Assembly (NCBI RefSeq): GCF_964204645.1
Contig: NC_134028.1
Location: 10,106,001-10,170,000, forward strand
Direction of reading: 5' to 3'
Source: Tubulanus polymorphus
Taxonomy: Eukaryota > Animalia > Nemertea
DNA: 64,000 nt
A program made the translations under genes and the position numbers. The notes beneath the pieces are model-generated. The model was not told where the DNA came from and ran no database searches. It was given only the letters and a program-made list of their open reading frames with translations. This document shows positions 1 through 58,006 of this stretch, one piece after another. Numbering within the stretch: the stretch's first letter is position 1; each line of letters starts with the position of its first letter.

Positions 1-11
1 GTGAGAAAGAA

Positions 12-530: not shown

Positions 531-554
531 ATGCATAATTTTTTTGCTAAATAA

Positions 555-977: not shown

Positions 978-997
978 TAATTTTTTTTGCTAAATAA

Positions 998-1432: not shown

Positions 1433-1448
1433 TTTTTTAATTATATAA

Positions 1449-2837: not shown

Positions 2838-2847
2838 TTTTTTTATT

Positions 2848-4554: not shown

Positions 4555-4594
4555 ACATGATAAAAAATAGATAATTAATTTTTTTGTTAAATAA

Positions 4595-4972
4595 ATGAGT
4601 GGGAGTTATATCAATCCTTCAAAGAATCATAGAATATCTAATGCTATTAAAGCAGAAAGATCACATCATATAATTACTCATAACCCTTCTAATATTAATC
4701 CCGATGAAACTTTATATGTTAGAATCCCTCGATTAACACAAAATACTTTTTATGTTCCAAATAGTATTTATTTATCAGCCGATATAAAAGTAATCGGTAA
4801 TAATAATAATTATGTTGTTGATAATGTTGGAAGATATTTGATTAAAAAATTAACTATAAAGATTGGACCAGAAACAGTTTTCTCATTAGATGATTATAAT
4901 TTATTTATGCATTATAAAGATTTATGGTTAACTAAAGAAAATAGAAATAATATGATATTTCAAGGCATCCAA
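4595..4972 (+). pseudogene. Major capsid protein (double jelly-roll type), 3'-truncated
   Basis: Matches the N-terminus of 29097..30343 up to ...IFQGIQ, then runs into unrelated sequence. Confidence 0.75.
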
Positions 4973-5125: not shown

Positions 5126-5226
5126 ACACTGACCGAGGCTACAATATTGTAACCTAGGTCGGTTGACTCGCGCGGATTTATCTGCATACACTGACCGAGG
5201 CTACAATATTGTAACCTAGGTCGGTT
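5126..5226. repeat. Two direct copies of a ~39-bp unit containing a 30-bp imperfect palindrome
   Basis: acactgaccgaggctacaatattgtaacctaggtcggtt at 5126 and 5188. Confidence 0.85.
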
Positions 5227-8200: not shown

Positions 8201-9280
8201 ATGAATGCAGACATGCTTGTAAATAGCTGCATTTGTTAAAATCGAATTCTTCATTAAACTAATATCGCCATCCATAAAAAGAAGGAAATTTCGATTCATC
8301 GTAAAATCCAAAACCAATGACAATTTGTAAACTAATTTACTCCAATCTCGATTTTTATTTGTTAGACTATCTTCAGAGCTTAACTGAGTCACTCAAAATA
8401 CAACTATACCCCAAACTATAGGCTGAGAATAGAATTTTCCACTAGTTTCTCAGTGTGTCCATGTTGTCATGTATCACCGCATATCTTAAGTGGCTACTAA
8501 GTAAAAGTAGACGTTTAGGCTCAAATGTGCGATAGACATGTTCTTGGTTTCAGGGAACAATACATAGACATGGGGCCAGGCCCTCGTCCACTTTTCTGTA
8601 AAACCGTTATTGTCGTATTTCTGCATAGCGTTACATTCTGAAATTCTTCAACAGTTCGTGGGCTTAAGATTTTAACCTTCATTTTATACATTAGATATTC
8701 TTAGCCTCCTTGAATCTATTGTAATCGTTATTATCCTTTTTACATAAAACATGCCTGAAATTGTGAGCATATACCATTCCTAATTTCAACTAAGAAAGTG
8801 CTCAGAAAGCACCTAAATGCATCTAATTCTTCAAAGACCACACCCCTTTTGTGCCTTATTCACCTGTGGCCCTTCTCCAACAGATAGATTCTCGAACATT
8901 TATCTAAATTACTCAATGGCATTTATTTCAAGTCTGCCCCCCGCGATCATGCCACTCTCCAAAAGCATCTACTTTTCAGTTTGGATTTGCTTGCCAGATT
9001 CCCTGTTATAAATAGCGACATGTGCTTCATATTTGCAGTGATACGTGACAATATAAACAGTGTATAAACAGTAGTGCAAAATGTATGCATCCACTATAGT
9101 TTTCAGGGCAGTTAAAATCTAAAGATTCTGAATATGCTCCTTGAGGATGTGAAATATATGAGAGATAAAACTCTAACCGATAACCATCGAGCTAAATCTG
9201 TTTGTATAATGTGATAAGTTTTGAAGTTTTAAGATTAATCGAAATTGCCTTTATTTCATTGCAATAATTTAATGAAAATT

Positions 9281-9550
9281 CAATTATTATTTGAATATAT
9301 TTGATTATATGAATTTGTGTATTGTAAATAAATCAATTGGTCGCGGAGCGGAGCGGTAGCGAAGTGGAGCGACCAATTAAATACAATATGCTTTTTAAAT
9401 TATTGATATCTTAGAATAAATATTTAGTTTTAATATAAAATGCACACGGTTATGAAAATATATTATAGTTTTAAATTACTTTTAATGTTTTGTTTTTTAA
9501 TGAGCTCGACCGTTCGACCTTTGGTATGAAAGCCCATTACCCCTATTACT
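9281..9550. repeat. Orphan Polinton terminal repeat (right-end orientation, ends ...cccctattact)
   Basis: Matches ~36735..36984 of copy B, including the terminal CCCCTATTACT and the GC-rich hairpin tip. Confidence 0.9.
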
Positions 9551-18100: not shown

Positions 18101-20522
18101 ATGGAGTATGCAGAATTTATGAAGAGGGTTAGTTCCTTCTTGACTGTGGATGAAGACTATAGTGATTGTAGTAGGCCTAGTGTAAACCAGTCGGAGTATC
18201 TAGGTCGTTTAGAAAATAGAATTAAGGAACTGGAGGTCGAAGTTCAATCGCTTACCAAACGGAACTGGAAATCGACTGTAGTCGATAACTCGTTGAAATC
18301 GCATGATCCGTCGTTTCCGTCGTCAGTAAGAGATGATCGTGCGTATCCGTCTACAGTTAGACATGATCCGTCGTTTCCGTCATCAGTAAGAGATGATCGT
18401 GCGTATCCGTCTACAGTTAGACATGATCCGTCGTTTCCGTCGTCAGTAAGAGATGATCGTGCGTATCCGTCTACAGTTAGACATGATCCGTCGTTTCCAT
18501 CGTCAGTAAGAGATGATCGTGCGTATCCGTCTACAGTTAGACATGATCTGTCGTTTCCGTCGTCAGTAAGAGATGATCCGTTGTTTACGTCAGCACGAAA
18601 AGACGAACAGGTATATTCCTCTACAGCTGCCGAAAGGGGTTATACACCTGCCGCTCCAGTATCTAATGGAAACGCAGTTACGATTGTCAAGCCGCCATTC
18701 GAATCGACAGTAGCGGCAGGTACTACGCTTAGGCCGGAGGCCGTGTCCTTCACACCTGAATATGGTCATGTCAGTGTAAATCCATCATATAACCTGGAAA
18801 ACCTATTGTCCAGGCAGATAGAAACCACAATGGCCTTGACTTTACCACAAACTGAAATGCCCAAATTTGATGGCGATCCGTGTGAATTCTACAGTTTTAT
18901 GAGAGCATATGATACCCTGATAGATCGAAATACGTCTAATGATGGGACTAAGTTTTATCTCTTGCTACAGTGCACTACTGGAGATGCGAACGGACTTGTA
19001 AAAAGTTTTTGTTCAATGGAGTCGTCGAGCGGATTAAATAACGCGTTGTCAGCACTGAAGAAACAATACGGTCAGAGCTACAAGATCGCTTGCAGCTTTG
19101 TGGATAAGTTGGTCAGCGGACCACCCATAAAGGCGGAAGATAGCGCAGGAATGCAGAAATTGTCGGTCGTTGCGATGAGTTGCGTTAATACCCTTCGCGA
19201 TATTGGATATCTGTCCAAGGTTGAAAATCCGAAGACAATGCGGAAGCTGAGCGAAAGACTACCATATGATGCACGCAAACGCTGGCGTGTAACTGCAGAT
19301 CGGATCTCTGAGGAAGCGGGTCGAAAAATTAGCTTCCAAGATGTGGTTTCATTTATTACCGAGGAGGCGCGTGTGTTAAATCACCCCGTTTTTGGGAAAG
19401 TTTTTAGTGATCGTAAAGTGGAAAAACCTCCACAAAGTTATGAAAGGGGAAATACCCTTAAAAAATCTATTCATGCCGTAAAGCATGAAAGTTCAGGTCC
19501 AGTTTCGAATTTTGTCAAATGTCAATATTGTAGTAACAGTGACCACTGGACAGATAAGTGTGATATTTTCAAAGCAAAATCTGTTGAAGAACGGAGGGAT
19601 TATGTTGTAAATAAAGGTTTTTGTTGGTTGTGCCTTAAGCCTAATCATAGAGCTAAACAGTGTCGTAGCAAGTTATCGTGTTTAAAATGTAGTAAGTCTC
19701 ATAATGCATTGTAACACTTTGAATCGGAGAGGCCTCCTAAATACGAAGAGGCTGATAGGTCTGCTAAGAGCGGGTTTGTCACTAGTAGTACCTTAGATTC
19801 CGTTATTGGTCTGCCAATCGTACCCGTTAAAGTTATCGGTGACAAAGTTATTGAAACTTATGCATTCCTTGATAATGGTTCTACAGCATCATTCTGTACT
19901 GAAAGTCTTGTTAAGGGTTTAGGAATTTCTGGAGTTAAAACTGAATTTAAGCTGTGTACGTTAGGTAAAGATGAGAAAATCATTAGTACTAAGGTAGACT
20001 TAACTGTGTCGGACCTTAACGGGCAATCCAGCGTGCCCCTCCGTGATGTAATATCGGTTTCGAATCTGCCCATATCAGTCGACGACATAGCAAAACAGGT
20101 AGACATTGATAAGTGGCCACATTTGTCTGATGTAAAGGTTGAACTTATAAATTCTGGTGTTGAGATTCTAATAGGAAACGACAATTGTGAAGCACTTGAA
20201 CCGCTTGATGTGCGTAAAGGTAGAGGTAAAGGTCCGATAGCGGTTAAGACAGTTTTCGGTTGGACAATAAATGGCCCGCTTAAACGTTGTATGAGTATTA
20301 ATACAAAGGAAAACTGTAAACGTGTAGGACCTATTAAAACTGACCAACGGTTGAACGATTTGTTCCAAGATTATTGTAATCGCGAGTTTAATGACGACGA
20401 AGTTTGTTGTGATAAGACTAGGTCTGTAAATGACCAGAAAGCTATAGGCTTATTCGAAAATTCTGTAGTATTGTCTAGTGGTCATTATGAGATCGGCCTT
20501 CCATGGAGGTCATGCCCACCTA
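18101..20522 (+). pseudogene. BEL1 gag-protease portion
   Basis: PKFDGDP gag motif, three Cys/His knuckles (CQYC..H..C, CWLC..H..C, CLKC..H), stop at 19712, protease YAFLDNGSTASF; cut at GLPWRSCPP by the Polinton. Confidence 0.9.
18301..18580 (+). repeat. In-frame 60-bp tandem repeat (~4.6 copies; HDPSFPSSVRDDRAYPSTVR) in BEL1 gag
   Basis: Visible as near-identical consecutive 60-nt lines. Confidence 0.95.
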
Positions 20523-21110
20523 AGTAATAGGGGTAATAGGCTTTCAAATCAAAGGTCGAATGGTCGAGCTCATTAAAAAACAAAATATTAAAAGTAATTT
20601 AAAACTATAATATATTTTCATAACCGTGTGCATTTCATATTATAACTAAATATTTATTCTAAGATATTAATAATTTTAATTTTAAAAGCATATTGTATTA
20701 AATCAATTGGTCCCTCCGCTTCACTACCGCTCCGCTCCGCGACCAATTGATTTATTACAATACACAAATTCATAATCAAATATATTTTAATAATAATAAT
20801 TATTCTATTATTCAACTGAAATGCACACGGTTATGAAAATATATTATAGTTTTAAATTACTTTTAATATTTTGTTTTTTAATGAGCTCGACCATTCAACC
20901 TTTAACCTGAAAGCCTATTACCCCTATTACTCTTAAAATAATCATATACATGAATAACATTTAAATTGACAGATTATTCAATATAAAAGTGTGAGCTCTT
21001 ATGGAATATATAGATAGATATATTTACAACATTATTTTAATATTCATATTTGTATGAGTTAGATTTTTAAACATTAAAAGTGTTAGTAAAGTGTGATTGA
21101 AATAATACAT
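20523..21110. repeat. Left TIR of Polinton copy B (588 bp; outer 409 bp form a fold-back)
   Basis: Reverse complement of 36426..36984. Confidence 0.95.
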
Positions 21111-21164
21111 GATATAAATCATTGAACTTCTAAAATCAATTTTAATAAAAATTTTAGTATTAAA

Positions 21165-24100
21165 ATGGAAGCAAATAAGTACTACTGTTCAACATGTAAA
21201 ATCAATATAGATAAATCCCAAAAAGCAAGACACAATAAAACTAAAACACATTTAGAGAATAAATTGAAATTAGAATATGAAGATGATATATTAGAAACTA
21301 AATTAGATGAATTAAAGAATGAAAAAGAAATATACAAATGTGATACATGTAATCAATCATTCAGTGATAAAAGATATTATAAAGAACATTTAAAATCTAA
21401 AAGTCATTTTAGAAATAAGAATAATGATATTTTAGGTAAAGATTATTTTGATAAAGATAATGATAAGAAACAGAAGACAATTAAAAGCATAAAAAATTAA
21501 TTAAACAATAAAAGACCATACATGGAAGATGTAAGAAAATATATTAATTTATTGGATAATAAAAAAGATATAGAGATAACCGAAGCATTTAAAAGTGATA
21601 TTGGCCCAGCAGCTATCGAGTTTAAATTTCATAAAGGTAAAACATTAGAAGAAAATAAAAAACATTTAGAAAATATGAAAGAAATAATAAAAATAACTGA
21701 TGTTGAATATCCTAAAATTAGTATATCAGTTAAAGTAAAGTTTATAAAATCTGAAGATAAACCAATATATAATATAAATTCTCATTCACAACATATTATA
21801 TGTAAACAACATATAGATGATAAATTAGATAAATGTTATAATGAAGTAAAAACTAAAATAGAAGAGAAATATTTTGAAGGATCTGGTTTAATATTTGATG
21901 AAATAATATTTATGACTTTACATGTTTATAACACAAAATATAATAAGTTAACTAAATCAAAACCAATAGATGAAAATAATGTATCATATTATAAAGAACC
22001 AGATATTGAAGCATCGAGTTATATTAAACTACCATTTAAAACTAATGCTGTAATAAATGTACAAAATTTTGATGATAAATGTTTTCTATGGGCTATAATA
22101 AGTTGTTTACATCCTGCAACTTATGATATTTGTAGATTAACTCATTATAAACCATTTGAAAATAATTATAAGATAGATAAGTATCCTGTTATAATTAAAA
22201 ACATCCCAAAAATAGAAAGAGATAATACTATAAAGATAAATGTATTTAATTTAATCAAATTACCAAATACAAAAGGTAACAATATAAAACATTATACATT
22301 AGAACCTTTATACCTATCAAAAGATTATGATTCAAACGATGTTATAGATACATTATATTATGAGAATCATTATATGTAGATTAAACAAATAGATTTATTC
22401 TTTAGAACAGAAAGTGATCACCATAATAAAATATATCTATGTAGAAAATGTTTACATAAATTCAGTAATGAAAGTACATTATTAAATCATAAACAATTAT
22501 GTGAAAATCATGATTATTGTAAATTAGTTTTACCAAATGAAAAGGATAAAATATTAGAATTCAAAAAATAAGATTACAAAAATAAAGTACCATTTGTTAT
22601 ATATGGATATTTTGAATCATTAAATAAAGAACAAACTGATCAAGATAGAAAAGAAATATATTATAAAAGAAAGAAATTAAATTCTAATGAAAATGATTTT
22701 TCAGATGAACCACCAATAACAAATACTATTAAAAAGATTCATCAATCAGCTGCAGCTTTCGGGTTATATATAAAATCTGATTATCCAGAACTAATTGAAA
22801 GTGAATATTATCATTATAGAAATGAAAATGTTATCAATCATTTTTGTGACTTATTAATTGAATATGAAATAAGATTTAGTAAATTATTGAATACAAATAA
22901 AGAAATTATTATGACAGAAGAAGATAAAGAAGCATTTGAGTTTGCAGATAAATGTTATTATTGTGAAAAGATATTTAATTATGAAGATAAAAAAGTAAGA
23001 GACCATGATCATTTGAACGGAAAGTTTACAGGTGCTGCACATGAGAATTGTAACTTACAAGCTAAGAAAATTAACTTTGTACCAGTTATATTTCATAATC
23101 TATCAGGATATGATGCACATTTATTCATCAAACAGTTATGTCATAAAATAGAAGAAATTAATAATGAAATAGAAAGATTAAATTCAAATAGATCAAAAGA
23201 TAAAATACCAACTTATAAATTTAGAATGTTAGCTAAAACATCTGAGAATTATATATCATTCCAATTTGGGTGCCTAAGATTTATAGATTCATATAGATTT
23301 TTAAATAGTTCATTAGATAACTTATCAAAATCATTAGTTGATGATGAATTAAAAATATTAAAGCAACATTACCCAAATAATGATGATTTCCAATTAATGA
23401 GATATAAAGGCGCAATTCCATATTCATTTTATAAATCACATAATGATTTTAATATAACTGAATTATTAAAAGAACAATTTTATGATGAATTAAAAAATGA
23501 ATATGTTAAAGATGAAGTATATAATAGAACATTGAATATTTGGAATCATTTTAAAATAACAAATCATGGACAATTAGTAGATTTATATCTAAAATCAGAT
23601 GTATTATTATTAACTGATATATTCGAAAGGTTTAGACATGTAAACCTAAAATATTTTAACATTGATCCTTGTCATTGTTATTCAAGGATTAACATGGGAT
23701 TGTGGTTTAAAATTTACAGATATAAAAATGGATTTGTTAACAAATATAGATCAATTACTATTATTTGAAAAATCTATAAGAGGAGGTGTTTCAGGTGTAT
23801 TAGGGGATAGATATTTCAATGTAAATGATAGCCCTGGATATAAGTTATTATATATAGATGCAAATTATTTGTATGGTTGGGCAATGATGGCACCACAACC
23901 TTATGGAGTATTTGAATTAACTGAAGTTTTACAGAATGAAAATAATGATAAATTTGATTGGAAGAAAAGAATTCTAGATATTGCAGATGATTCAGATACT
24001 GGTTACTTCTTTGTTGTAGATTTAGAATATCCTGAACATATTAAATTTAAATCTAGAAATCTAGCTTACTGTCCCGAACATAAAACTGTAACTCATGAAG

Positions 24101-25191
24101 AATTATCAAATTATCAAAAAAGAATTAAACCCGAAAATCATATTCATACAGAAAAGTTAACGGTAACTCAAGAAGATAAATATAATTATGTAGTACATTA
24201 TAGAATGTTAAAGTTTTATCTAAAACAAGGAATGATTCTAAAAAAAGTACATAGATATATTTCATTTAGTAAATCTAAGTGGTTAGAAAAATATATAGAA
24301 TTTAACACCAAACAGAGAACTGAAGCTAAAACTGATTTCGAAAAAGATTTCTTCAAGTTAATGAATAATGCATTCTATGGTAAGACTTGTGAAAATATTA
24401 GAAATAGAAATGATATTGAGTTAGTTAGTAATGGTAAAAGGATAAGGCATTTACAATCATATCCTAAGTTTTTAGGTAACAGAATATTTGATGAAAATTT
24501 AGCCGCAGTTAAAATCAGAAGAACATCAATGAAATTTAATAAACCAATCTATGTTGGAGCATCAGTTTTAGAATAATCAAAATTACTAATGTATGAATTC
24601 TATTATAATGTATTACAACCACTTTTTGGAGAAAAACATATAGAAATACTATATTTTGATACTGACAGTTACATATTAAAGATAAAAACTGATAACATAA
24701 CTGATGATTTAAAAACATTAAAACATCATTTTGATTTCAGTAACTATCCTAAAAATCATGAATTGTTTAGCAATGATTATAAAAAAGTTCCCGGTAAATT
24801 CAAAGATGAATTATGTGGTGAAGAAATGATTGAATTCATCGGTATTAGATCTAAAATGTATTCATATAAAACTAAAGAACATGAAGCTAAAAAGTTGAAA
24901 GGAATAACTAAAAGTGTAGTAGAAAAGAATATTCATTTCAAAGATTACATCAATTGTATATTCAATGAAGAAGTTAGAAAACATAAGATGAGATGTTTAA
25001 GATCTGAAGATCATGAAATGTTTATTGAAGAAATTGAAAAGATAAGTCTAAACCAATTTGATGATAAAAGATATATTTTAGATGATGGAATTCATACAGT
25101 TGCTTATGGTTGTAATTTAGATGAATACTTAAAATTTAAAAGAGAAGAAACAAAAGAGAACGAGATAATGAAAAGAATTCTAACGTGTTAA
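21165..25191 (+). pseudogene. Protein-primed family B DNA polymerase (pPolB) with N-terminal C2H2 fingers and an endonuclease-VII-like His/Cys insert
   Basis: One frame from 21165 with stops at 21498, 22377 and 22569, frameshift ~23685, stop 24574. Motifs DHDHLNG..GAAH..CNL, FHNLSGYD, YLKSDV, YIDANYLYG, KLMNNAFYGK, YFDTDS. Confidence 0.93.
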
Positions 25192-25220
25192 TCAAATTTT
25201 AATAAAAATATGTATTATAA

Positions 25221-25431
25221 ATGGAGAGTAAACAAGCGCACAGTGAGAACAACAAATCATTTCTAGATAGAATAAAAGATACTTCAAATGTCAAATCAGT
25301 AGATTATAAATATAAGAAGTTAAAAGTATTAATAATCCATAAGAAATATCTAATTACAAATATTGATACAGTTACTAACAAATATGGAGATAAATTAGTT
25401 ATACACTTAGAATATGAAGGATTACACGTAT
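25221..25431 (+). pseudogene. Small basic Polinton protein, 3'-truncated by an internal deletion (distant homolog of 54543..54848)
   Basis: TAAATG start; K.FL..I and T/N-KYG motifs shared with 54543..54848; fused at 25432 to the 140-aa gene. Confidence 0.6.
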
Positions 25432-25743
25432 CAAAGAAGACATAACTTAGCATTAGAGAAATACAATAAAGCAGCAGAAGAATATAGAGAAAAGAGGCAA
25501 AACTATATGGATTATATTAACAAGGAATTATATGATCAGAAGATTTCACAAAGAGATTTTCAATCAGTTGATGATGCAATGAGTTTATATAACGCGGTAA
25601 CAAATAAAGAAAAATTACATCTATACAAACCTAAATTATCAGATTATTATACCCCAAGTAAAGAACAGAAGAAATATGAAATAATTTGGATTTTAGGCGG
25701 AACTGTTATTGTTATATTTGTTGCTTATAAGTTTACTAATTAA
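25432..25743 (+). pseudogene. 5'-truncated copy of the 140-aa membrane protein
   Basis: Matches 666..977 from QRRHNLALE onward. Confidence 0.85.
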
Positions 25744-25768
25744 TTATTTTTTTTTTTTTGTTAAATAA

Positions 25769-26199
25769 ATGGATGATAAAGTTGATAATATTGATATTAT
25801 TCCTCATGATATAAATAAAACTAAATTGAAAATATATTTAGAAAAACAAATATTTGAATTTGAAAGTGACTTTGAAAGTGAAAAAAATATTTAAAAAGTA
25901 AAATTATATATTATTTGATTATAAGTGGTTCGGTTACAATTACTTCTGTAATAACATTTCTAGCAATATTCAGCCCATTAACACCTTTAGCTATATCAAT
26001 TGGTGTGTTAGGATTATCATCAAGTGTTTTAACCGGTATAAGTACAAAATTAAATATAAAAAGTAATAAAGAAAAAATTAAAACTAATATAAAAGAAATT
26101 AATAAATTAAAGAATACACTAGATTATATAATAAGTTTAAATGGCCATATAACAGTTGAAGAACAAGATAAATTATTAAAAGAATTAATAAATTATTAA
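25769..26199 (+). pseudogene. Two-TM coiled-coil protein, frameshifted
   Basis: Homolog of 998..1432 with a lesion at ~25870-25890. Confidence 0.8.
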
Positions 26200-26215
26200 T
26201 TTTTTAGTTATATAA

Positions 26216-27604
26216 ATGGCAGATAGTTTTCCAAAAGCTTTCCAATGTAATAAATCAATTAAATATAATATTCCAGCAATAGATTTTAATAAAGATATTA
26301 CATATAGAAATGAAGTTTTAGATTCATTAACTAATTTAGAAATTTATGTTACTGAAACTAATAATTTTAATGCAAAGATGGAAAATATATTTCATGTATA
26401 TTTAATTAATTTTAAAAAATTGAAAGGTGAAAAACAATGGTTATTAAAATCTAATATGAAGTATTGGCAGAACCAATTAAATTTTGCTGTTTATTGTGCA
26501 ACAACAGGTTGTGGAATTAGTTGGAATGATCATTTGAATAATTCTAAATATAAATTAATTCAAAGTTTATTTAGATTTCATACATACTTTCAAATAAGAA
26601 TAATATTAAATGAATTAGAGTGCGCTTTACCAGGATCTAGGTATTTTAAAGAATTAGATAATAATATTAATTTATCAAAGTTTTATAAAATTTGTAATGA
26701 ATTTAATATAGATATAAATAATTCTGATTTTAGAACAAAAATTGGAACAATAAGATCACTTCCTTGCCCTAAAAAGATTGCAGAATATTGTGCACTTCCC
26801 ATACCATCTAATAGTTTGTATAATATCTATAGTAATAAATTAGGTTATGGTAAAATAGAAACTAAGGATTTAGAAACATTAAATTTCAATAAATTACCGA
26901 CATTTTATGATAATTTAAAACAAGAAAACAATAATGGTTGGGTTTATTTCATTTTAGAAAATAATGAAGGTTTTACAAAATCAGGTATACAAAGAATAAA
27001 TCAATCTATTAGAACTTATTTGATATGTATTTTAGGTGCACAAGTTGAAACAAGATCCCCAATAATTGGAAATTTAAATACATCATTCGATACACAAAAA
27101 CAATTTAAAGTTTTATTTGAAGATTCCATACATAATGATAAAAATAGATCGATTCCAGAAAACATTATAAGATATCAAAATTATTTAGATAAATCACATA
27201 TTAGATTAAATTATTGTATAGGCCCTAATCTATTAATTATTTCTAATGATTTAGTATTAAAGATGGGAAACATAATTGGTTATAATAATCTAATTAAAAC
27301 TGCAACAATAACTAATTCATTTGGATTAAATGATATAAATAAAAAGATTATAACTGCTCCAAAATTAATGGAAGGTGAAAAAAATAAAAAACACATTCAA
27401 TCAACAGAAACTAAAACTAAGAATATTAAATTAAATAATGATTCTAAAATAAAAGATTATAATACATCAGAAAATATAAAAACTGATATTATTCAACATG
27501 ATATAATTAAAACTGATAATGATAATAAATCCCATGAAAATGCTAAATTAGCTTTAACTTGTATAGGAATTGTAATCGGAGGAATATTATATTTTAAATT
27601 TTAA
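26216..27604 (+). CDS. Polinton conserved protein of unknown function (462 aa)
   Basis: Intact; homolog of 1449..2837. Confidence 0.85.
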   Translation: MADSFPKAFQCNKSIKYNIPAIDFNKDITYRNEVLDSLTNLEIYVTETNNFNAKMENIFHVYLINFKKLKGEKQWLLKSNMKYWQNQLNFAVYCATTGCGISWNDHLNNSKYKLIQSLFRFHTYFQIRIILNELECALPGSRYFKELDNNINLSKFYKICNEFNIDINNSDFRTKIGTIRSLPCPKKIAEYCALPIPSNSLYNIYSNKLGYGKIETKDLETLNFNKLPTFYDNLKQENNNGWVYFILENNEGFTKSGIQRINQSIRTYLICILGAQVETRSPIIGNLNTSFDTQKQFKVLFEDSIHNDKNRSIPENIIRYQNYLDKSHIRLNYCIGPNLLIISNDLVLKMGNIIGYNNLIKTATITNSFGLNDINKKIITAPKLMEGEKNKKHIQSTETKTKNIKLNNDSKIKDYNTSENIKTDIIQHDIIKTDNDNKSHENAKLALTCIGIVIGGILYFKF

Positions 27605-27620
27605 TTTTTTTATTATGTAA

Positions 27621-29056
27621 ATGGCAGAATGTGTAGAAGATAATCCATTGGATGGCATGGGAAATAATGATGAAGGATATATTGATGATGATTATAATGA
27701 TGCAGGTGCTAATCTTAATGAAACTAATATTGATAATGATGATGAATCAGCATATAATTCTAATTTAGCAGATAGTGGTTCTAAGGTCCCATCAACAGAA
27801 GAAAATGATAGAAGAATTAGATCGAGAATACCTACTGAAAATTTAGACCCAGGTTTAGAAAATTATGAATTTATGTATGAATTTCAACATGTATTTAAAG
27901 AATCTGGATATAATATAAATGATAGAGGCGCTAGACCTTTAGTACAAGACTTAATGTTTTTGGATTGTGAATATTATTATCGTTTGAAAGATGATTATTA
28001 TATTGATATCTCTTATAAAAAACAAAAAAATTTTTTAGCAGAATCAACTTTGCTTAAGTCTGACTCATTACTATCTAGAATTAAAATAATAAGAAATATT
28101 AATGAAATAGAAGATGTAACACAAGAAGAAATAAATCAAAATGAAAGAGTATTTAAACAAAGAATCAATAAATTATTTGAAACAATCGATAATAATTTAG
28201 AACCAGAAACAAGTTCTGAACAGAATAAAACTTCCAAAACTAGTAAACTTAAATCAAATAAAGTTCCAATTGAAAAACTTTTACCGAATGGATTACTTGA
28301 TGCAACAGATCAAGAATTAGAAGATTTAGATATATTTTCTGATAAAGCAATTAGAGAAATTATTAGTATAAGACTTGCATCTGATAAAATTGCGCATGAT
28401 AAAAGTATAATAGATTTTAAAATTAGAACTTTAGAAAAAGAATTAACTGATAAAAATAAAGAAATAGAACAATTAAAGTCTGATTTAGATCATCAAGTAA
28501 TTGATGAAATAGAATATAGGCAAAAAGAATTACGTTTAGAAAAAGAAAAAGATGATTTAGAATATAACATAGAATTACAAAAAGAAGAAATTAAATTATT
28601 ATTAAAATCATATGATTATAATATTAATAGATTAAAAGTCATTTTAAAGATTTGTTGATAAAACCAAATTCTGACATATCATTGAAAGATAGAATAAGAT
28701 TATTATATAAGATTATTATTTAAGTTAGAAGGAATATCAATTCTTTCAATTCTAACAGCTGTAACTATGTTATTTACAACAATAGGTTAACAATATCAAA
28801 TGCTTTAAAATCTACTCCTACTCCCAATAAACCGGATAAACCCCCGAATGACAATAATTCTATACACGATAAAGTTAAGGATGGTTTAAAGAAATTAGCA
28901 AAATATTTATGGGAACTATCAATTGTTGGTTTTATATTGAAATCTGCAGGAAACATTATTAACTTTGCTGCTTAACATATTATTTTATTTTTAATTACAG
29001 TTGTAAGTGCTATTATTTTTGGGTTAGTAAATATGATATCAAAAAATATCAAGTAA
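27621..29056 (+). pseudogene. Large coiled-coil/membrane protein, frameshifted, with deletions in its 3' part
   Basis: 345-aa ORF, then broken frames matching 4100..4554. Confidence 0.8.
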
Positions 29057-29096
29057 ACATGATCAAAAATAAATAATTAATTTTTTTGTTAAATAA

Positions 29097-30343
29097 ATGA
29101 GTGGGAGTTATATCAATCCTTCTAAGAATCATAGAATATCTAATGCTATTAAAGCAGAAAGATCTCATCATATAATTACTAATAACCCTTCTAATATTAA
29201 TCCTGATGAAACTTTATATGTTAGAATCCATCGACTAACACAAAATACTTTTTACGTTCCAAATAGTATTTATTTATCAGCTGATATAAAAGTAATCGGT
29301 AATAATAATAATTATGTTGTTGATAATGTTGGAAGATATTTGATTAAAAAGTTAACAATAAAGATTGGTCCAGAAACAGTTTTCTCATTAGATGATTATA
29401 ATCTATTCATGCATTATAAAGATTTATGGTTAACTAAAGAAAATAGAAATAATATGATATTTCAGGGCATTCAATCGGAAAACCATAATAAATTATGATC
29501 AGGAGCTAATGACGCAATAGTAACTCGTACCGCAGATAACTTGATAAAAAAGATTTATGGAAGCAAATATAAAATTCCATTAGACTTTGAATTGATAAAT
29601 AATAATGCACCTTTATATAAATACGCAATTCAAGAAGATATTATATTCGAGATAACATTTGCTCCTGTAAATGAAATTGTATTATCTAGCGTTGTTAAAG
29701 ATATGAGTTATAAATTATCGAATATATGTTTGGAATATGACACAGTAACTGATGAAAATATTTCAAGTATAATTCAAACTCAATACAATCAAGGATTTTC
29801 ATTATTATATGATTATATTGATAAAATTAAAACCGTAACTATTAATGCAAATGATGAAATTATTAATGAGAATATTAACTTCCCAAGAAGATCTATTAAA
29901 GGTATATTAATATTTTTTACCATTGCAACATATGCTAATGGTGCAATACAGGTAGATAATTATTTTAACCCTGAAATAACAAAAGTAAAAATAACTATCG
30001 AAGGAATAGCAAATAAATATTTTGTCAAGGAATGAGAATGATAGTTCAATGGCCAGAAATTAGAAAACATTTTATGAATGAAAAAGTGAAATCATCTGAA
30101 AATTGTAATATTAATCAAATTGATTATTATACCGGTAATAAATATGCATTATGGTTAGATTTTAGAACAACAGAGGATAATTCATTACATGGTTCTGGAA
30201 AAAAACTACAAAACACTATAGATGGAATACAATTATTCATGACAAAGAATAAAGGAATCAAAAATTTTAAAATGCACATTTATATTATATCTGACGCGCA
30301 ATTAAATATTGTAAATTCACAATTAGATAGTGTTATGTATTAA
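29097..30343 (+). pseudogene. Major capsid protein (double jelly-roll type)
   Basis: ~415 codons, beta-rich; TGA at 29496 (AGA in copy C) and 1-bp frameshift ~30020. The capsid assignment rests on size, context and resemblance to Polinton MCPs. Confidence 0.75.
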
Positions 30344-30375
30344 AATTTTAACTTTAATAAAAATATATATAATAA

Positions 30376-31185
30376 ATGGAAGGAGGTAAAGTATATAAAC
30401 ATATTCCATACATCGATACACATGAAAATAATGAGTTTATATTATGTAATACCTTGAGTTTATATTATGTAATACCTTGTAATATAGCTTTGATATTTGA
30501 TCCTATTTTCAAAATTTATAAAACTAAACTAATAGAAATCGATAATAATAAAAGTGGTGTTGTTGATAATTTAAGTAATGTAATTGATAATAATGTAATA
30601 CCTACTACAGTAATACCTACTACATCTAATAATGTAATACCTACTACATCTAATAATGAAATAATATTAAATGTTAGTGAAAATAGAAATTATTGTGATT
30701 ATTGTAAAGGTGAATTTTCAAACGCTCCATCAAATTGGAATAAACATATGAATACAAAGGTACATATTACTAATGTTATAGAACGTGTTGGTTTAAGAGA
30801 ATTTATAGAACACCCATTTACATATGTTACAAAATTTGTTTCAAATAAAAAAGTAAATGGTAAAAAATTATACGAAGATTTTTTATTAGCAACACCTAAT
30901 AAAGATGAATTAGATTTAACTGATGCTAATGAAATATTAGGATCAAACACTGTAAATGAAATATTAGGAGCTAACACTAATAAAGATTCTATGAAACATA
31001 AAGTAGAAAATAATGATAAATTTGATTGGATGAATAAGCATAACAATGAAACAACTATTGATGATGCGGTAAAAAGGGTGAAGAATAAGTATAAAAATAA
31101 AACTATTGATGTAGATTCGGTAGAGCATTTGCATAAATTGTTAGGGCCTGATAGTGAATTGGAGAGTGATAGTGGAAGTGATTAA
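30376..31185 (+). CDS. Zinc-finger-containing protein (269 aa)
   Basis: YCDYC-x12-HMNTKVH finger; short VIPTT repeats; TAAATG start. Confidence 0.7.
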   Translation: MEGGKVYKHIPYIDTHENNEFILCNTLSLYYVIPCNIALIFDPIFKIYKTKLIEIDNNKSGVVDNLSNVIDNNVIPTTVIPTTSNNVIPTTSNNEIILNVSENRNYCDYCKGEFSNAPSNWNKHMNTKVHITNVIERVGLREFIEHPFTYVTKFVSNKKVNGKKLYEDFLLATPNKDELDLTDANEILGSNTVNEILGANTNKDSMKHKVENNDKFDWMNKHNNETTIDDAVKRVKNKYKNKTIDVDSVEHLHKLLGPDSELESDSGSD

Positions 31186-31611
31186 GATATTAATTATATT
31201 TAACTCAAATAATAATATTAGTTGAAAATTGTATAAAATAATAGCAAATAAAAAAGGGGGTTTTAAGTATTTAAGGTATCTAATACATATCTAATACATA
31301 TTATTTGAAAATACCTTAAATTATATTTCTTTTTTAAATTTATGTTGAAACCTCAGTAATAATAAGTAACCTTTATTATTTTCAAACTTATTCATATATT
31401 AGATATAAATTGATATATAAAAATAAATTGGTTGAAAATTGCATAAATAATATTTATTTTAAAAAAGGGGGTTTTAAGTATTTAAGGTATCTAATAGGGT
31501 ATCTAATACATAGATATATAAATAGTTATTTTATAAATTTATATTCATATGGAAATTGTAGTCTCAGTAATAATTTTGAACCTTTATTATTCTTTAATTT
31601 ATTCATATATT
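31186..31611. repeat. Diverged ~210-bp tandem duplication that includes the ATPase 3' end
   Basis: gttgaaaattg...aaaaaagggggttttaagtatttaaggtatctaata...ctcagtaataat...cctttattatt...ttcatatatt occurs twice. Confidence 0.75.
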
Positions 31612-32139
31612 CATCATGTAATTCAGTAGGTATAATTTGATTCTCTTCCAATGATTGTTGCAGAGATTTTCTATCTTTGTTATGAAATAAAACTAGAAAT
31701 CTTATATTATCCCTAAAGTCTTTAACAATTGAATTATATTTTTGATTTAAAACCCATGTTGTTATCCCAAAATGTCTCCCAGAGAAAGCTAAATAACATA
31801 ACTCACTTTCTCTAACTTTTGAATCATGTAAATTTGCGCAATCATCTATAATGAATAATGTATTTGATCCTTTATAAGTATCAATTGCTATTTTTATACA
31901 ATTATCTAAATTTTCTTTTACTGTTTTAGGATCTAATATAATAAAATTTTTTTCATCTTAACTATATATCTATTATATGTTTTATTCATTTCATAAGTAG
32001 GACAGAATAATATTATATTATCAAAATGATTCTTATAAATAGTTTCTAACAAATCTAATATGAAATGTGTTTTACCACAATTGGTTACACCAGTAACTAA
32101 CATATTATGCGGTTCAAATATAAATAAATCTTTATTCAT
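31526..32139 (-). pseudogene. A32/FtsK-like DNA packaging ATPase, frameshifted
   Basis: Walker A GVTNCGKT, Walker B FIIDD, SGRH and NQ motifs; frameshift ~31960; intact homolog at 56240..56848. Confidence 0.9.
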
Positions 32140-33217
32140 TTATTCTTTTAATTTTACTAGATAAAATCCATTCATTAAATTTATCATCATATCCTTTATA
32201 TTTCACCAAAGAATACTTTTTTCCTTTAAGAGTTTTTGTTTTCAATACTTCTTCCATTTTGTATTCTATTTTATCTGGATTTGGTACAAGTGATAATTCT
32301 TGTTCATAGAAATAACCTAATATTTCTTCATCTTTTAGATCTTCTAATTTATAAACAAAAGGTTTAGTTAATATTTTCTTTTTAATCTTAAATGTTTCTT
32401 CAGTAAAATTAGGGGTATAACCTTTGTAAAAGGTTTTTCTATATTTAGATATTCTAACGTGTTGTCCTATTTTAAATTTAGGTTCACCGAAATCGTGTGT
32501 AACAAACGCTCCATATAAATTATTCCAAACTATTTCTGAATTATCTTCTTTTCTAGCTTGTATAGGTTTCATATTTATAGAACTATGTTTAGAATTATTA
32601 TAACCTTTCACTAAATCATCTAACACATCGATATATTTATATGTTTCATTAGCAGTAAAATATTTCCACATTCTAGTTTTCAATGTTTTATTAAATCTTT
32701 CTATAATAGATGCTTTTTTATCTGAGTGTGTTGAAAAATAATCTACATCGTTATCAGATAATAGTTTTTTGAAATGTTTGTTATAAAATTCTTTACCTTC
32801 ATCAAATTGTATCTTATCTGGAATAGCTTCTTTAAATATTGATTTAAAAGCATTTGTCACTTCTATACCAGTTTTATTTTTGATTGGAATTGACCATGCG
32901 TATCTACTGAATATGTCTATAACATTCAGTATCCAGAAATATCCTTTGTTGTATTCTTCTAAGTTCTTCATGTCAATTAAATCTGCTTGCCATTGTTGAT
33001 CGATATATGAAACCATAACTTTTCTTGTTAAATAAGTTTTATACATTTTCTTGTGGATTTGATATGTTGGTTGATTTTGTAACCATGATTTTAATTCACT
33101 ATATTTTATACCACCATTATCAGATTTAATTTTATTCCATAATTCTGAAACGTTAGAATATGATACTTCACTCTCTGGGTTATAGTATAAATCTCTTAAA
33201 TATTGTTCTTTTTTCAT
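32132..33217 (-). CDS. Retroviral-like (rve, DDE) integrase with C-terminal chromodomain, intact
   Basis: WQADL, QFDEGKEF, ERFNKTLK catalytic motifs; chromo-like tail VKYKGYDDKFNEWI; typical Polinton c-integrase. Confidence 0.95.
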   Translation of the reverse strand: MKKEQYLRDLYYNPESEVSYSNVSELWNKIKSDNGGIKYSELKSWLQNQPTYQIHKKMYKTYLTRKVMVSYIDQQWQADLIDMKNLEEYNKGYFWILNVIDIFSRYAWSIPIKNKTGIEVTNAFKSIFKEAIPDKIQFDEGKEFYNKHFKKLLSDNDVDYFSTHSDKKASIIERFNKTLKTRMWKYFTANETYKYIDVLDDLVKGYNNSKHSSINMKPIQARKEDNSEIVWNNLYGAFVTHDFGEPKFKIGQHVRISKYRKTFYKGYTPNFTEETFKIKKKILTKPFVYKLEDLKDEEILGYFYEQELSLVPNPDKIEYKMEEVLKTKTLKGKKYSLVKYKGYDDKFNEWILSSKIKRINE

Positions 33218-33223
33218 CTTATT

Positions 33224-33592
33224 TTAATCCATTAATAATAATTTAGATTTAGTTTCAATGGCTTTATGATTTGACTTATTTTCTGGTATGATAGGTTTAT
33301 TGTCATTGGAATCATCTTTATCATCAGATTTGAATTTTGATTTATATATTACACCGGATAATATAATAACTGTTACTAATCCAATTGTCATATATAATTT
33401 ATAATTACTTCCAGCATTAGAAGAATCAGATGGATTATTATTTGAATTAATATCAGATAAAGTCTGTGATTCCTTTATATCAGTTAATTTCTTTTTCTTA
33501 GCTTTTTTTAATTCTGCAGATCTTTTACCTAATTCTCTTGCCCATTTAATTTGTTTTTCAGATCTAACCTTTTTCTTAACTCCATCACTCAT
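33224..33592 (-). CDS. Basic single-TM protein (122 aa)
   Basis: R..KQIKW.R.LG motif and TM segment; diverged homolog at 55051..55419. Confidence 0.75.
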   Translation of the reverse strand: MSDGVKKKVRSEKQIKWARELGKRSAELKKAKKKKLTDIKESQTLSDINSNNNPSDSSNAGSNYKLYMTIGLVTVIILSGVIYKSKFKSDDKDDSNDNKPIIPENKSNHKAIETKSKLLLMD

Positions 33593-34193
33593 TTATTTTA
33601 GTTAATTTTTGTTCTGATTCGTTTTCTGTTTCACCGTTTGGGTGTCGTACGGCGCCATCTTTTTCGTTCTTACCTGATTTATATACCATAGGTTTGATGT
33701 TCGAAAATGTTATGACGCCAGTAGAAATTAATGTCATAACCGATCCTAATTGAAATGAAGCATATCCAACCCATTTTTGTAATTCAGTCATAACTAAATA
33801 GTCATTTTTCAAATCACTATATAATTTATTTTCATCATCAATTGGTATTAACTGGTTACATAACTTAGAATAACATTTGACAATACCATCTGAAATAGAA
33901 TCATTTATTCGGGCTAATCTTGCTTCTTCATAAATCTTAAAATATTTTATTACTTTATCTGGTTTCATAGCATCTAGTTCTTGAAAAGTAATTATCTTAG
34001 TTAAAAACTCTTTAGATTTCCCGCCAGCAATTAGTAATTCAAGATGGTGTTTACAATATAAATAGTATTCATAATATATATTACAATTAATTTGAGCACA
34101 ATTAGTTACAACTGTATCTTTATTATCACTTATACCCAAATCATCTAATGTCTTTTCAATATCAATACTATTCTTACTCGATTTCTTTGACAT
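33585..34193 (-). CDS. Polinton hypothetical protein (202 aa, hydrophobic C-terminal segment)
   Basis: Intact; diverged homolog at ~55420..55956. Confidence 0.75.
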   Translation of the reverse strand: MSKKSSKNSIDIEKTLDDLGISDNKDTVVTNCAQINCNIYYEYYLYCKHHLELLIAGGKSKEFLTKIITFQELDAMKPDKVIKYFKIYEEARLARINDSISDGIVKCYSKLCNQLIPIDDENKLYSDLKNDYLVMTELQKWVGYASFQLGSVMTLISTGVITFSNIKPMVYKSGKNEKDGAVRHPNGETENESEQKLTKINE

Positions 34194-34502
34194 TTATATT
34201 AGAGAAAAAAGCGAAAAAAAATATAAGTATTATAAAATGATACCAGTATCTCTTTAGATTAATACTAGCTTAGTTAAAGGTAAAGAATTTTAGTATTAGT
34301 TATTGTTTTTTTAGTATTTTTTATTTGTGATATAAAGTATTCTCTTTTGAAAAGAATTGTAAAAGAAAATATCAAAAATTAAAATAGAAATAATGGCTAG
34401 TTGAAGTGATTGTTTTTTTAATATATTTTATTTGAATTCTATTTGATATCTCACTACTTTTGTTTATCTATTAGGAGCAGTTATTATAACTGTCCAGATA
34501 AG

Positions 34503-35178
34503 TCATTTCGGATCCTTGATATCAAATTCCTCAACGTATTGTTCATTATTTGGATCATTGTTCCATTGATCAATAAATTTCTTTGCCTTTGTTAACTGTT
34601 CTAAATATAACTAAATCTAGTTTATTAGATTTAATTATGTTTTCCTTCTTTTCTAAAGGTCTTAAATTTTTCCAACCCCAAATAAGTTTTTTATTGTATT
34701 CATCATTCATGTTAAATTTAGATATCGGTAACAAGTGATCAATATGGTAATAATCCCCATAATTATCTATATTCATTTTATCATCGAATTGAAATATAAT
34801 CCATGATTTGAGAAATTCATCTGAACAACCCAAAAAATTAGATAGTGTTTCTGAATGCGTTTCTTTGTTGAATAATTGTGTTAATCTAGATCTTAAGCAT
34901 TGTTTCAATCTAAAATTAAGATCTGTTTTATATCTTTCTCTCATATATTCTGTCATATAATCATTATAAGCTTCTCTATTATCTTCTCGGTATTGTTTGG
35001 TATATAGTTAAGTACAAGTTTTACAGCAATATTGAAAACCATCTTTGCTAATCTTACGCTTGCTAAATTCTGTTAAAGCTAATTTATCTAATTCACACTT
35101 AGAACACTTCTTGTAATATATATTTATAACACCAGTGTTATTTGTAATATTTATAGTTTGTGGTTGTTCTGATTCCAT
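34503..35178 (-). pseudogene. HNH endonuclease with N-terminal CxxC..CxxC, resembling those of large DNA viruses
   Basis: ATG 35178 (TAAATG); KKCSKC...CKTC, in-frame stop ~35008, LGCS, HIDHLLP...NLRPL...N..KSNK; probable frameshift ~34600. Confidence 0.75.
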
Positions 35179-35316
35179 TTATTATATGTATTTTTTACTA
35201 AATTGGTTAATATTTTAGAATCCTCTTCCATTTCTTCGACCAACGTCATCCTTTTTCATTCCTCGCTGCTTTTGATAAGTCGTTTCAGTTCCTTGATATT
35301 TAAATCATACCACTGG

Positions 35317-35670
35317 GCAAAAGCGCGCATTCAGGCGTGCTTTTGCTTAATGCGCATGCGCTAATCATAATTATATATTCATTATGTAAATTCTGTAAAA
35401 TAGAAACAACCGACATAAAATATCAAATCGTGTTCGCATTAGGCAAAACCGCGCATTCAGATTCAGGCGCGCTTTTGCTTAATGCGCATGCGCTAATCAT
35501 AATTATATATTCATTCTATAAATTCTGTAAAATAGAAACAACTGAACACAGAAAATATCAAAACGTGTTCGCATTAGGCAAAAGCGCGCATACAGGCGCG
35601 CTTTTGCTTAATGCGCATGCGCTAATCATAATTATATATTCATTCTGAATAGAAACGACCGAACATAAAA
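35317..35670. repeat. Three ~126-135-bp tandem units, each with a GC-rich hairpin and a GCGCATGCGC palindrome
   Basis: gcaaaagcgcgc-loop-gcgcgcttttgc type stems begin at 35317, 35443 and 35578. Confidence 0.92.
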
Positions 35671-36425
35671 ATTTACACCAAACAGATTTACACAATACAT
35701 TATACAAGTTGTTCAGTCGTTTCTTCCAATACAACATTTGATTTCTATAAATACAATTTATAATTACAAACATTTTTTCAATTGCTGGTAAATATTTAAC
35801 TACAACAACAAATGTTAAACTTAATCATTGGAGTCTTAATGTTTTTGAAATTCTTATATAGTTTCTTCGTCGATCTTTTGGTGATTCTTGTGCTTCTACG
35901 TCAGGTTCTATTGGTTTGATATCCATTGCTGTTGATTCCTCAGTCAGAAAGAGTATCTTGAGTTTCTCTATCGCTTCTTGATGCGTATGACGTTTTATTA
36001 ATCTAAAATATATTAGCGGCAACTCTAGCCATCTAAAAGATATACTAAATACACTTAAATATATCTAAAGGTTTCATATTTAATAGCCCCAATAACTACA
36101 AAAAACAGTACTTACATTTAGATTTAGAATTGTAAACTATAAACTCCTAATTTCGTTTCGAGAGATAGAATATCCTAAGCGTTATGTTACAGCGTCTATT
36201 CATTTCCGGTGCTATTTCGAAATTAACACGTCGTCTATTATGACACGTCATCTGGTTCCGGCACACCTTCATCTAGAATGTTCTACGCGTTTGCAATATT
36301 ATGTCTCATATGTCTCGGCGTCATAGTAACAGCTGTAACAGCTGTGAATTTATAGATTTATTCAATAGTTCATTACATTAAATGTATATAGGCTCAAATA
36401 GAATCATGTTCTAGTATAAACAGCT

Positions 36426-36984
36426 ATGTATTATTTCAATCACACTTTACTAACACTTTTAATGTTTAAAAATCTAACTCATACAAATATGAATATTGAA
36501 ATAATGTTGTAAATGTATCTATCTATATATTCTATAAGAGCTCACACTTTTATATTGAATAATCTGTCAATTTAAATGTTATTCATGTATATGATTATTT
36601 TAAGAGTAATAGGGGTAATAGGCTTTCAGGTTAAAGGTTGAATGGTCGAGCTCATTAAAAACAAATATTAAAAGTAATTTAAAACTATAATATATTTTCA
36701 TAACCGTGTGCATTTCAGTTGAATAATAGAATAATTATTATTATTAAAATATATTTGATTATGAATTTGTGTATTGTAATAATCCAAGCGGAGCGACCAA
36801 TTGATTTAATACAATATGCTTTTAAAATTAAAATTATTAATATCTTAGAATAAATATTTAGTTATAATATGAAATGCACACGGTTATGAAAATATATTAT
36901 AGTTATAAATTACTTTTAATATTTTGTTTTTTAATGAGCTCGACCGTTCGACCTTTGATTTGAAAGCCTATTACCCCTATTACT
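36426..36984. repeat. Right TIR of Polinton copy B (559 bp; fold-back 36605..36984)
   Basis: Reverse complement of 20523..21110, with ~29 bp missing at the hairpin tip (~36783). Confidence 0.95.
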
Positions 36985-36990
36985 CACCTA

Positions 36991-39815: not shown

Positions 39816-39905
<90 letters not shown>

Positions 39906-40187
39906 CGTCACAGATGGCGACAGGTACAATACTTAGCTAACATTTTTTGGCGTCGGTGGAATAAGGAATATCTGCACCTCATGCAAGAACGTCAAAAATG
40001 GCATAATCCCAGGAGAAATATAGTTACTGGCGATATTGTGTTAATCAAAGATAATACTGCTGCTAGGTGTAACTGGCCGTTAGGCAAAGTAATTCAAGGG
40101 TTTCTTGGTAGTGACGGGTTAGCGAGAAGCGTATTATTAAAAACTATGGATAATGAGTTGATCCGGCCTGTGGACAAATTAGTATGA
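36991..40187 (+). pseudogene. BEL1 RT-RNaseH-integrase portion
   Basis: HIFGAVSSP, FYVDD, YDPLG, HHFADAS, SIPRLEL, NPAD, GGVWER, INSRPL-like and GPY/F-like tail; several frameshifts. Confidence 0.92.
39812..39902. repeat. (TA)n microsatellite inside BEL1 integrase
   Basis: ~90-bp TA run. Confidence 0.95.
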
Positions 40188-40449
40188 CTTGAATTGGATG
40201 ATTAATTGCATACGCATTAATGTATAACCGGGTTGATTGTTTTCCACTGTTGTCGGAAACAACTTGATGTAACTGATACTACTGAACTGTCAATCAATAT
40301 GACCTATATGTAACTCTGCATGCAGCCCCCTTTCCCGCCACTTGGCACTCTAATAAAATTTCTTATACTGTACACACGGAATTCATCACAGCTGTTCTCG
40401 ATCCTGTTTCTAGTGGATTCTCTACCACATTTTTGGTGCCGTGACCAGG

Positions 40450-55956: not shown

Positions 55957-55987
55957 TTATATAACAAAAAAATTAGTTGTGATGTTG

Positions 55988-56228: not shown

Positions 56229-56239
56229 ACTAATTGAAT

Positions 56240-57976: not shown

Positions 57977-58006
57977 TTATATATCCTTAATTTTAACTTT
58001 ATATTT

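Follow-up and report, generated by a model that had tools for sequence, protein, structure and literature searches.

The window, i.e. the whole stretch of 64,000 nucleotides that was analysed, carries in its central part a degraded copy of a Polinton/Maverick element. Its termini read AGT...ACT, in agreement with the AG...CT ends of such elements, and the 6-bp target-site duplication characteristic of them is present at both flanks as CACCTA. The terminal inverted repeats (TIRs) are about 588 bp long and 93.7% identical (20523-21110 and 36426-36984); thus, the 409-bp unit, which the original prediction had treated as the whole TIR, makes up only its outer part. TIRs of several hundred bp and end motifs have been described for Polintons (PMC8097293, PMC8502044). 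In its length of ~16.5 kb, long TIRs, AGT...ACT ends, 6-bp duplication and genes for pPolB, an rve integrase and a packaging ATPase, the element resembles the Polintons/Mavericks (polintoviruses; adintoviruses) presented in these two papers. Nested BEL/Pao retroelements occupy 18101-20522 and 36991-50606, and the Polinton sits within a BEL/Pao reading frame; one of these retroelements has an open polyprotein of 1,810 aa at 45174-50606. The features of the element are as follows.

20517..20522, unstranded: left target-site duplication CACCTA, inside a BEL/Pao retroelement (flanking reading frames, BEL/Pao domains)
20523..36984, unstranded: Polinton/Maverick, 16,462 bp, degraded copy (tip-to-tip span)
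20932..21110, plus strand: remainder of the left TIR, of which ~150-185 bp are skipped by most family copies in the reads
21165..25191, plus strand: pPolB gene, broken by stops and a frameshift, with zinc fingers, a putative vOTU, exonuclease and polymerase motifs
about 21522-21929, plus strand: predicted terminal-protein domain in pPolB (structure matches)
22944-23060, plus strand: endonuclease VII-like insert in pPolB, below curated cut-offs
29097..30343, plus strand: major capsid protein gene, broken, weak support (Capsid_N E 0.0012, below cut-off)
31933..32139, minus strand: packaging ATPase fragment (Pox_A32, E 1.2e-6)
32132..33217, minus strand: retroviral-like (rve) integrase, open frame (PF00665, E 1.8e-9)
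34570..34956, minus strand: stand-alone HNH / endonuclease VII-like ORF (phrog_1035 E 0.00079; HNH_4 E 0.037; Atlas 0.96, HNH cluster)
36426..36604, minus strand: remainder of the right TIR (TIR alignment)
36985..36990, unstranded: right target-site duplication CACCTA (sequence)

The polymerase gene was recognized by DNA_pol_B_2 (E 1.5e-6), its catalytic motifs are discernible, and intact relatives are 66-85% identical to it, depending on the segment. Its N-terminal part was modelled together with nine natural homologues; residues 1-136 reached mostly pLDDT 66-91, and residues 140-237 of the model are unreliable. All PDB matches listed for this model were little-finger/PAD domains of Y-family polymerases (E ~0.004-0.02, probability 0.9-1.0, none below 0.001), and it also matched pPolB proteins of adintoviruses, bidnavirus-like or densovirus-labelled entries and MELD viruses, with E from 4e-9 to 6e-4. 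A fold of the little-finger/PAD type was reported for the terminal-protein domains of the PRD1 type and of Polintons (10.1101/2024.03.18.585575). A terminal-protein domain is thus predicted, on structural modelling, at the N-terminus of pPolB. The endonuclease VII-like insert is retained in pPolB of all three intact relatives; homing-endonuclease insertions of such type are described as common in Polinton pPolBs (10.1101/2024.03.18.585575). The separate HNH / endonuclease VII-like ORF (34570-34956, minus strand) found a match also in the close relative L001. When 19 of the 21 ORFs of at least 60 aa were scanned against Pfam, no HUH Rep nickase, telomere resolvase, tyrosine recombinase or helicase was recognized, at a sensitivity that a distant homologue could escape, and no protease match, sought as a maturation protease, appeared in the ORFs scanned. 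The integrases of related elements combine the rve domain with a chromodomain. Homologues of the integrase that carry a name belong to a nemertean, lancelets, an acorn worm, a spider and a nematode, apart from one record with the label Bartonella; the host is thus likely an animal.

Two repeat arrays were seen inside the element. Between the converging gene blocks, ~215 bp are directly duplicated in tandem (31185-31611, 76%); a reading of this stretch as a palindrome was rejected. Between the HNH ORF and the right TIR, three direct repeats of ~125 bp (35316-35670) each contain a palindromic core of the GCGCGC/GCGCATGCGC type and might form a regulatory array.

Further Polinton DNA lies near both borders of the window. 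The fragments 1-4972 and 55051-64000 are 91-97% alike over long stretches and 72-95% alike to the central element, and just past the break of the first one there are two partly palindromic 43-bp direct repeats (5126-5230). The integrase and capsid blocks of the 55-64 kb copy share one direction, whereas those of the central Polinton converge; the order in the relative L003 is that of the 55-64 kb copy. An ORF homologous to the broken capsid gene of the central element (58007-59161) scored 0.97 in Atlas to capsid clusters, at a low recognition value.

Architecture of the termini

Each end of the central Polinton consists of the terminal sequence, a structured centre and a second, inverted copy of the terminal sequence. 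The parts of both ends, together with a third terminus of the same family found in the window, are the following.

9253..9550, minus strand: third family terminus, with outer arm and central stem-loop in the same orientation; stops where the inner arm would start
20523..20637, plus strand: left outer arm, true terminus, 115 bp (arm alignment, folding)
20638..20690, plus strand: AT-rich spacer, 53 nt, 9% GC, without complementarity to the opposite spacer
20691..20762, plus strand: central stem-loop, with a 22-bp stem (21 of 22 pairs) and a 28-nt loop of 71% GC
20763..20816, plus strand: AT-rich spacer, 54 nt, 13% GC
20817..20931, minus strand: left inner arm, the inverted terminal 115 bp; this second tip faces the interior
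36605..36717, plus strand: right inner arm, 113 bp, with a 2-nt gap and the same four diagnostic letters as the left inner arm
36718..36869, minus strand: right centre, 27 nt of the stem-loop deleted
36870..36984, minus strand: right outer arm, true terminus (arm alignment, folding)

The fold-back proposed for each TIR on first inspection was borne out at both ends. At the left end, 111 of 115 positions of the two arms (20523-20637 and 20817-20931) are paired, with four mismatches, and the inner copy lies ~180 bp further in; the length of the arms, put originally at ~113 bp, is 115 bp on alignment. These arms aligned with a score of 243, whereas none of 300 shuffles exceeded 43. DNA folding of the left end gave -131.5 kcal/mol (z -29.2), and that of the right end (36605-36717 against 36870-36984) z -18.7; in neither case was any of 100 shuffled sequences equally stable. 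In the predicted structure of the left end, 20523 pairs with 20931 at the base of the stem and the flanking bases are unpaired. The expectation that the right end has the same layout held for its arms, but not for the central stem-loop, 27 nt of which are gone.

A second stem of about 22 bp with a GC-rich loop had also been anticipated, and it is indeed found at 20691-20712 / 20741-20762, its loop (71% GC) standing out from the surroundings of 9-28% GC. At the left end, the axis of this central stem (20726.5) almost coincides with that of the arms (20727). The complementarity of the two spacers is no better than in shuffled sequences (1438 of 2000 and 915 of 2000). Unpaired spacers between paired arms and a paired central stem would be expected if the pairing were selected or renewed. 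A match of the central stem to a miRNA model of Rfam (25 bits, with a gathering score of 81) was taken as chance.

The four arms are not equivalent. At arm positions 25, 26, 28 and 35 the inner arms of both ends are alike and differ from both outer arms; the existence of inner-type and outer-type letters indicates that the arms are two pairs rather than one collapsed repeat. The claim that the terminal sequence is present four times agrees with the count of the 11-nt tip motif, which occurs five times in the window, four times in the central Polinton and once at 9550. That each end is a unit bounded by AGT...ACT is correct as far as both arms carry tips, but CACCTA adjoins the outer tips only and is missing from the inner ones. 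Furthermore, comparison of repeats within the window revealed that the interior of the Polinton has no tip of its own.

The third terminus (9253-9550) has an arm of the outer type, and beyond its break lies other repeat DNA. No trace of an inner arm was detected there, as 317 of 500 shuffles scored equally well. We considered this terminus as an ancestral simple end and dropped this view, since other repeat DNA takes the place of the arm and no matching loose end was present among those listed for the reads. Six sites distinguish the left outer arm from the third terminus, and at four of them the outer arm agrees with the left inner arm. All three termini of the window share one orientation, which, with two of them belonging to one element, would occur by chance in about 1 of 4 cases.

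Family copies in raw reads and distant relatives

Palindromes are prone to assembly artefacts. Of five runs found under one species label, all but X4 (share 0.22) were aligned. Depth was taken from run X5, which contains raw Illumina data of a second study and of which about 12% was read; runs X1-X3 consist of contigs of one study, possibly the source of the window, and were left out of depth counts. The reads were aligned to 20638-21500, a segment that contains one arm only. Among the 11,237 aligned reads, 163 were at least 99% identical to it, 3,533 were 95-99%, 6,059 were 90-95% and 1,482 were less than 90% identical, and this spread points to many related copies as their source. Judged by the read depth, there are roughly 70 ends of the family in every 100 Mb of the host genome.

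The depth over the centre was flat at ~1,355, the stem-loop included, and it rose to 2,986 over the arm (2.2-fold) and to 3,571 at the tip. A position 10 bp into the interior was covered by 1,791 reads, i.e. 0.50 of the tip depth. Among the positions listed, loose ends behind the tip occurred in 1,117 and 274 reads with an agreement of only 0.34-0.36, which implies many different flanks, and joints on the opposite strand from the arm to the start of the centre were found in 753, 309 and 54 reads. Such joints are what outer arms must give. The typical end of the family therefore has one centre and two arms, with one tip in host DNA and the other against the interior. The arm-to-centre ratio excludes an accident of a single copy, and the presence of the fold-back in independent raw reads, together with the inner and outer diagnostic letters, argues against an assembly artefact; these were the two outcomes on which the original prediction was to stand or fall. 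Stand-alone 409-bp units, which had also been envisaged, are absent from the window, and with half of the tips joined to the interior they can be at most a small minority in the reads. Thus, the fold-back of the ends is real and extends to the family as a whole, the Polinton being ordinary in other respects.

Unphased reads with the outer-type letter at arm position 26 numbered 1,261, which corresponds to about one for each centre; a mismatch close to the base of the stem (arm positions 25-28) thus persists across the family. Indels that shift the stem off-centre were also recorded: a 6-nt loss in 588 of 1,421 reads, and 2-nt gains in 838 and 224 of 1,304. No sites at which many molecules start or stop were present among those listed for the run. 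The variants, joints and loose ends given here are those with the best support, beyond which the run has 125 variants, 55 joints and 347 loose ends.

A second subfamily was represented, among the positions listed, by 343 and 267 reads with different sequence before arm position ~40-46. These reads, placed at 20886-20894, share the last ~40 bp of the tip and then continue into different, partly GC-rich sequence that is absent from the window. If this subfamily had a doubled tip, the depth joined to the interior should be 1,785, and with simple ends it should be 1,355; the observed value was 1,791. This arithmetic, which is sensitive to mapping edges, suggests that the diverged subfamily keeps the doubled tip. 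As a separate observation on 20932-21110 and 21115-21280, 153-184 bp of the inner TIR of this copy are missing from most reads of the family, and the depth stays near 1,700 until about 21250 and is about 1,000 thereafter; typical TIRs of the family appear to reach into the start of the polymerase gene.

Outside this species, we compared 79 related loci from metagenome and viral contigs, 15 obtained by integrase alignment and 64 by a metagenome scan. None of them yielded a TIR match or a verifiable pair of termini. The exact tip motif had no match in viral contigs, and scans of these contigs with single integrase and pPolB sequences returned no loci. A putative end of L011, whose integrase is 42% identical, had no copy of the tip (best 10 of 20); a 57-bp GC-rich palindrome of short repeats (254-400 of that locus) lies there ~70-130 bp inside the putative tip. 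A 217-bp fold-back in L070 is missing in six relatives and was taken as either a one-off or an artefact. In three relatives (L003 9082-9359, L065 4657-4840 and L068 5891-5967), the integrase block is closely followed downstream by a palindrome that scored better than all 300 shuffles.

Possible role of the doubled tip

The original prediction offered a hairpin-type end for replication or resolution. A structural role of the end is plausible in the light of the family-wide occurrence and of the diagnostic letters, but no Rep or telomere resolvase was recognized in the ORFs scanned, and a terminal protein is predicted. In adenovirus-type replication, a protein-primed polymerase uses a panhandle origin, in which the duplex terminus is re-formed on a single strand. 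Such a panhandle needs both genome ends, whereas here each end could form the duplex alone. We favor, at a probability of roughly 0.4, the interpretation that the doubled inverted tip provides a local panhandle origin for protein priming at each end. Once displaced or looped out as a single strand, each end would fold on itself into a hairpin, which we infer to form in vivo. The folded 3' tip would pair with the inner copy and thereby present a duplex terminus to the polymerase primed by the predicted terminal protein, and this duplex origin would be made without the partner TIR located 16 kb away. Protein priming at the folded 3' tip would then displace the inner copy, and the outer arm, the centre, the inner arm and the interior would be copied in turn. 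The original order would be restored, with no inversion and with the differences between inner and outer arms kept. The base of the stem, positioned at the host junction, would be a candidate site for cutting the looped-out strand free.

The standing model of Polinton replication involves a looped-out, excised strand, with the panhandle formed between the two TIRs as the origin for protein priming (PMC4046053); a Polinton panhandle is likewise drawn in a figure legend of a recent preprint (Fig. 4C, bioRxiv 10.64898/2026.07.28.741278). A local panhandle fits the presence of the terminal-protein domain, the lack of a recognized Rep and the single orientation of the three ends in the window. Pairing between the TIRs is far more stable (-582 kcal/mol, compared with -131.5 and -113.8 kcal/mol for the local hairpins), so any advantage of the local hairpin must be kinetic, either in speed or in not needing a 16-kb single strand. 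Evidence against a local panhandle includes that the right end has no full stem-loop and the third terminus no inner arm, although both are decayed copies, and that common indels leave the stem off-centre in many copies of the family.

One alternative would be that the structure is a neutral relic. In a founder, snap-back or template switching might have duplicated the tip, replication would have copied it to both ends, and conversion between the arms would have kept them alike without any function. Copy-back would presumably also end exactly at the tip, and the unphased letters of the left outer arm, four of whose six differences from the third terminus match its own inner arm, are what conversion gives; the fold-back of the distant relative L070, without which six relatives continue, illustrates a one-off event. 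Nevertheless, complementarity of the spacers is gone while pairing of the arms and the central stem is kept, the subfamily that diverged beyond ~40 bp appears to retain the doubled tip, and selection is described as acting against inverted repeats with a short spacing (PMC3300023). We regard a neutral origin as possible but doubtful. Priming by the hairpin itself, as in parvoviruses, is unlikely in our opinion. There, the folded 3' tip would prime synthesis into the interior and a nick at the inner tip would resolve the product, with flip and flop arising in each round. The geometry is that of an extended ITR of the AAV type, a palindrome ending at the genome end (PMC11575299), hairpin priming was proposed for virophages and PLVs of Halocafeteria (bioRxiv 10.64898/2026.07.28.741278), and the persistent mismatch near the stem base (the outer-type letter in 1,261 unphased reads) can be read in its favor. 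However, HUH Rep was recognized in none of the ORFs compared with Pfam (19 of 21), all three ends in the window share one orientation, the run showed no site of many molecule starts or ends among those listed, and the Halocafeteria palindromes occur preferentially with replicases other than pPolB (bioRxiv 10.64898/2026.07.28.741278). Moreover, as pPolB has kept a predicted terminal-protein domain, hairpin priming would not be needed.

The position of the stem base exactly on the host junction raises the question of excision. A cruciform extruded from duplex DNA at the host boundary might be cut by a junction resolvase, either of the host or the endonuclease VII-like/HNH protein of the element, to free a hairpin-capped element that is subsequently re-opened. 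The concentric central stem and the AT-rich spacers could nucleate extrusion, the nuclease insert is present in pPolB of all three intact relatives, the element has a separate HNH ORF, and AAV ITRs carried in plasmids were shown to form structures sensitive to resolvases (PMC3300023, PMC11754738). On the other hand, the nuclease matches fall below curated cut-offs and such domains are common as homing-endonuclease insertions (10.1101/2024.03.18.585575), the 179-nt centre disfavors extrusion, as a 52-bp spacer abolished fork stalling (PMC3300023), and no closed-end joints were present among those listed; we consider such a handle for excision quite improbable. Less probable still is that the inner copy matters as sequence, by doubling the sites for the integrase, the polymerase or a host factor or by serving as the polymerase promoter, with the central palindrome binding a dimer. 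The inverted, CCAAT-containing stem and its GC-rich loop, which precede the first ORF by ~400 bp, and the full depth of the central loop in family reads would suit this idea, but it leaves the inversion and the exact end at the tip unexplained, and inner tips were not seen to be used in bulk as insertion ends (0.50 of all tips are joined to the interior). Finally, an assembly artefact, an accident of a single copy or a palindromic MITE inserted on the ends is suggested by the known behavior of palindromes in assemblies. Against it, the depth ratio and the joints are family-wide in raw reads of another study, diagnostic letters are shared inner-to-inner and outer-to-outer, the target duplication is confined to the host side of the outer tips, and no separate tip occurs in the interior. 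We find this explanation barely credible.

A combined scheme can be imagined, which we hold rather doubtful: an abundant lineage of animal polintoviruses with parvovirus-like fold-back termini, in which the hairpin or cruciform of each end would be cut at the host junction for a precise release of the element and the ends would then be re-opened or re-primed locally. If true, such a reading would join protein-primed and hairpin-based replication in a single virus, and would supply the missing excision step of Polintons. The ends share with ITRs of AAV and other parvoviruses a palindrome that ends at the genome end, an internal secondary stem and the presence of the same repeat at both ends (PMC11575299). 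Unlike in AAV, neither Rep nor another HUH nickase was recognized, the element has its own polymerase and integrase, and the palindrome is about three times longer. Similarly to hairpin telomeres of poxviruses and ASFV (PMC8956199), an AT-rich, incompletely paired fold-back lies inside the TIR; in contrast to them, the ends are open and the element is integrated between copies of a target duplication, the endonuclease VII/HNH matches are weak and no convincing resolvase was found. On the features compared, the fold-back ends appear to lie outside both the parvovirus and the poxvirus telomere systems.

Closer parallels come from Halocafeteria seosinensis, in which virophage subtypes 1, 2, 5 and 6 and PLV subtype 4 have palindromes in their TIRs (bioRxiv 10.64898/2026.07.28.741278). 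These adjoin the target duplication and are present in all copies of a subtype, and hairpin priming was proposed for them in the preprint as an untested mechanism (bioRxiv 10.64898/2026.07.28.741278). A palindrome within the TIR beside the target duplication is a common feature of those elements and ours. However, as given in the preprint, their palindromes are 52 nt long (subtype 5) under a gap limit of 10 nt, compared with 115-bp arms and a structured centre of 179 nt here, and they belong to a protist and mostly to replicases other than pPolB, whereas here the host is likely an animal and pPolB has a predicted terminal protein. TIRs of casposons also carry internal palindromes (PMC4046053). 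The statement that Polintons have simple TIRs should therefore be qualified. The main texts on described Polintons deal with TIR length and end motifs only, whereas the present TIR holds an inverted second copy of the tip. For animal Polintons, a doubled and inverted tip was not described in the full-text literature searched, comprising few subscription papers and articles without their supplements; end palindromes do exist, however, in the related protist elements (bioRxiv 10.64898/2026.07.28.741278).

Our results extend end palindromes, which we found described for protist virophages and PLVs and for casposons only, to an element whose pPolB has a predicted terminal protein. They also have a practical aspect, as a program for TIR detection could take such ends for MITEs if it goes no further than the first inverted match. 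The exit of Polintons from the chromosome and the restart of their replication have been presented as a model without direct evidence (PMC4046053). Folding of the end at the host junction, together with the inner and outer letters and the abundance of the family, makes this step of the Polinton life cycle testable from sequence.
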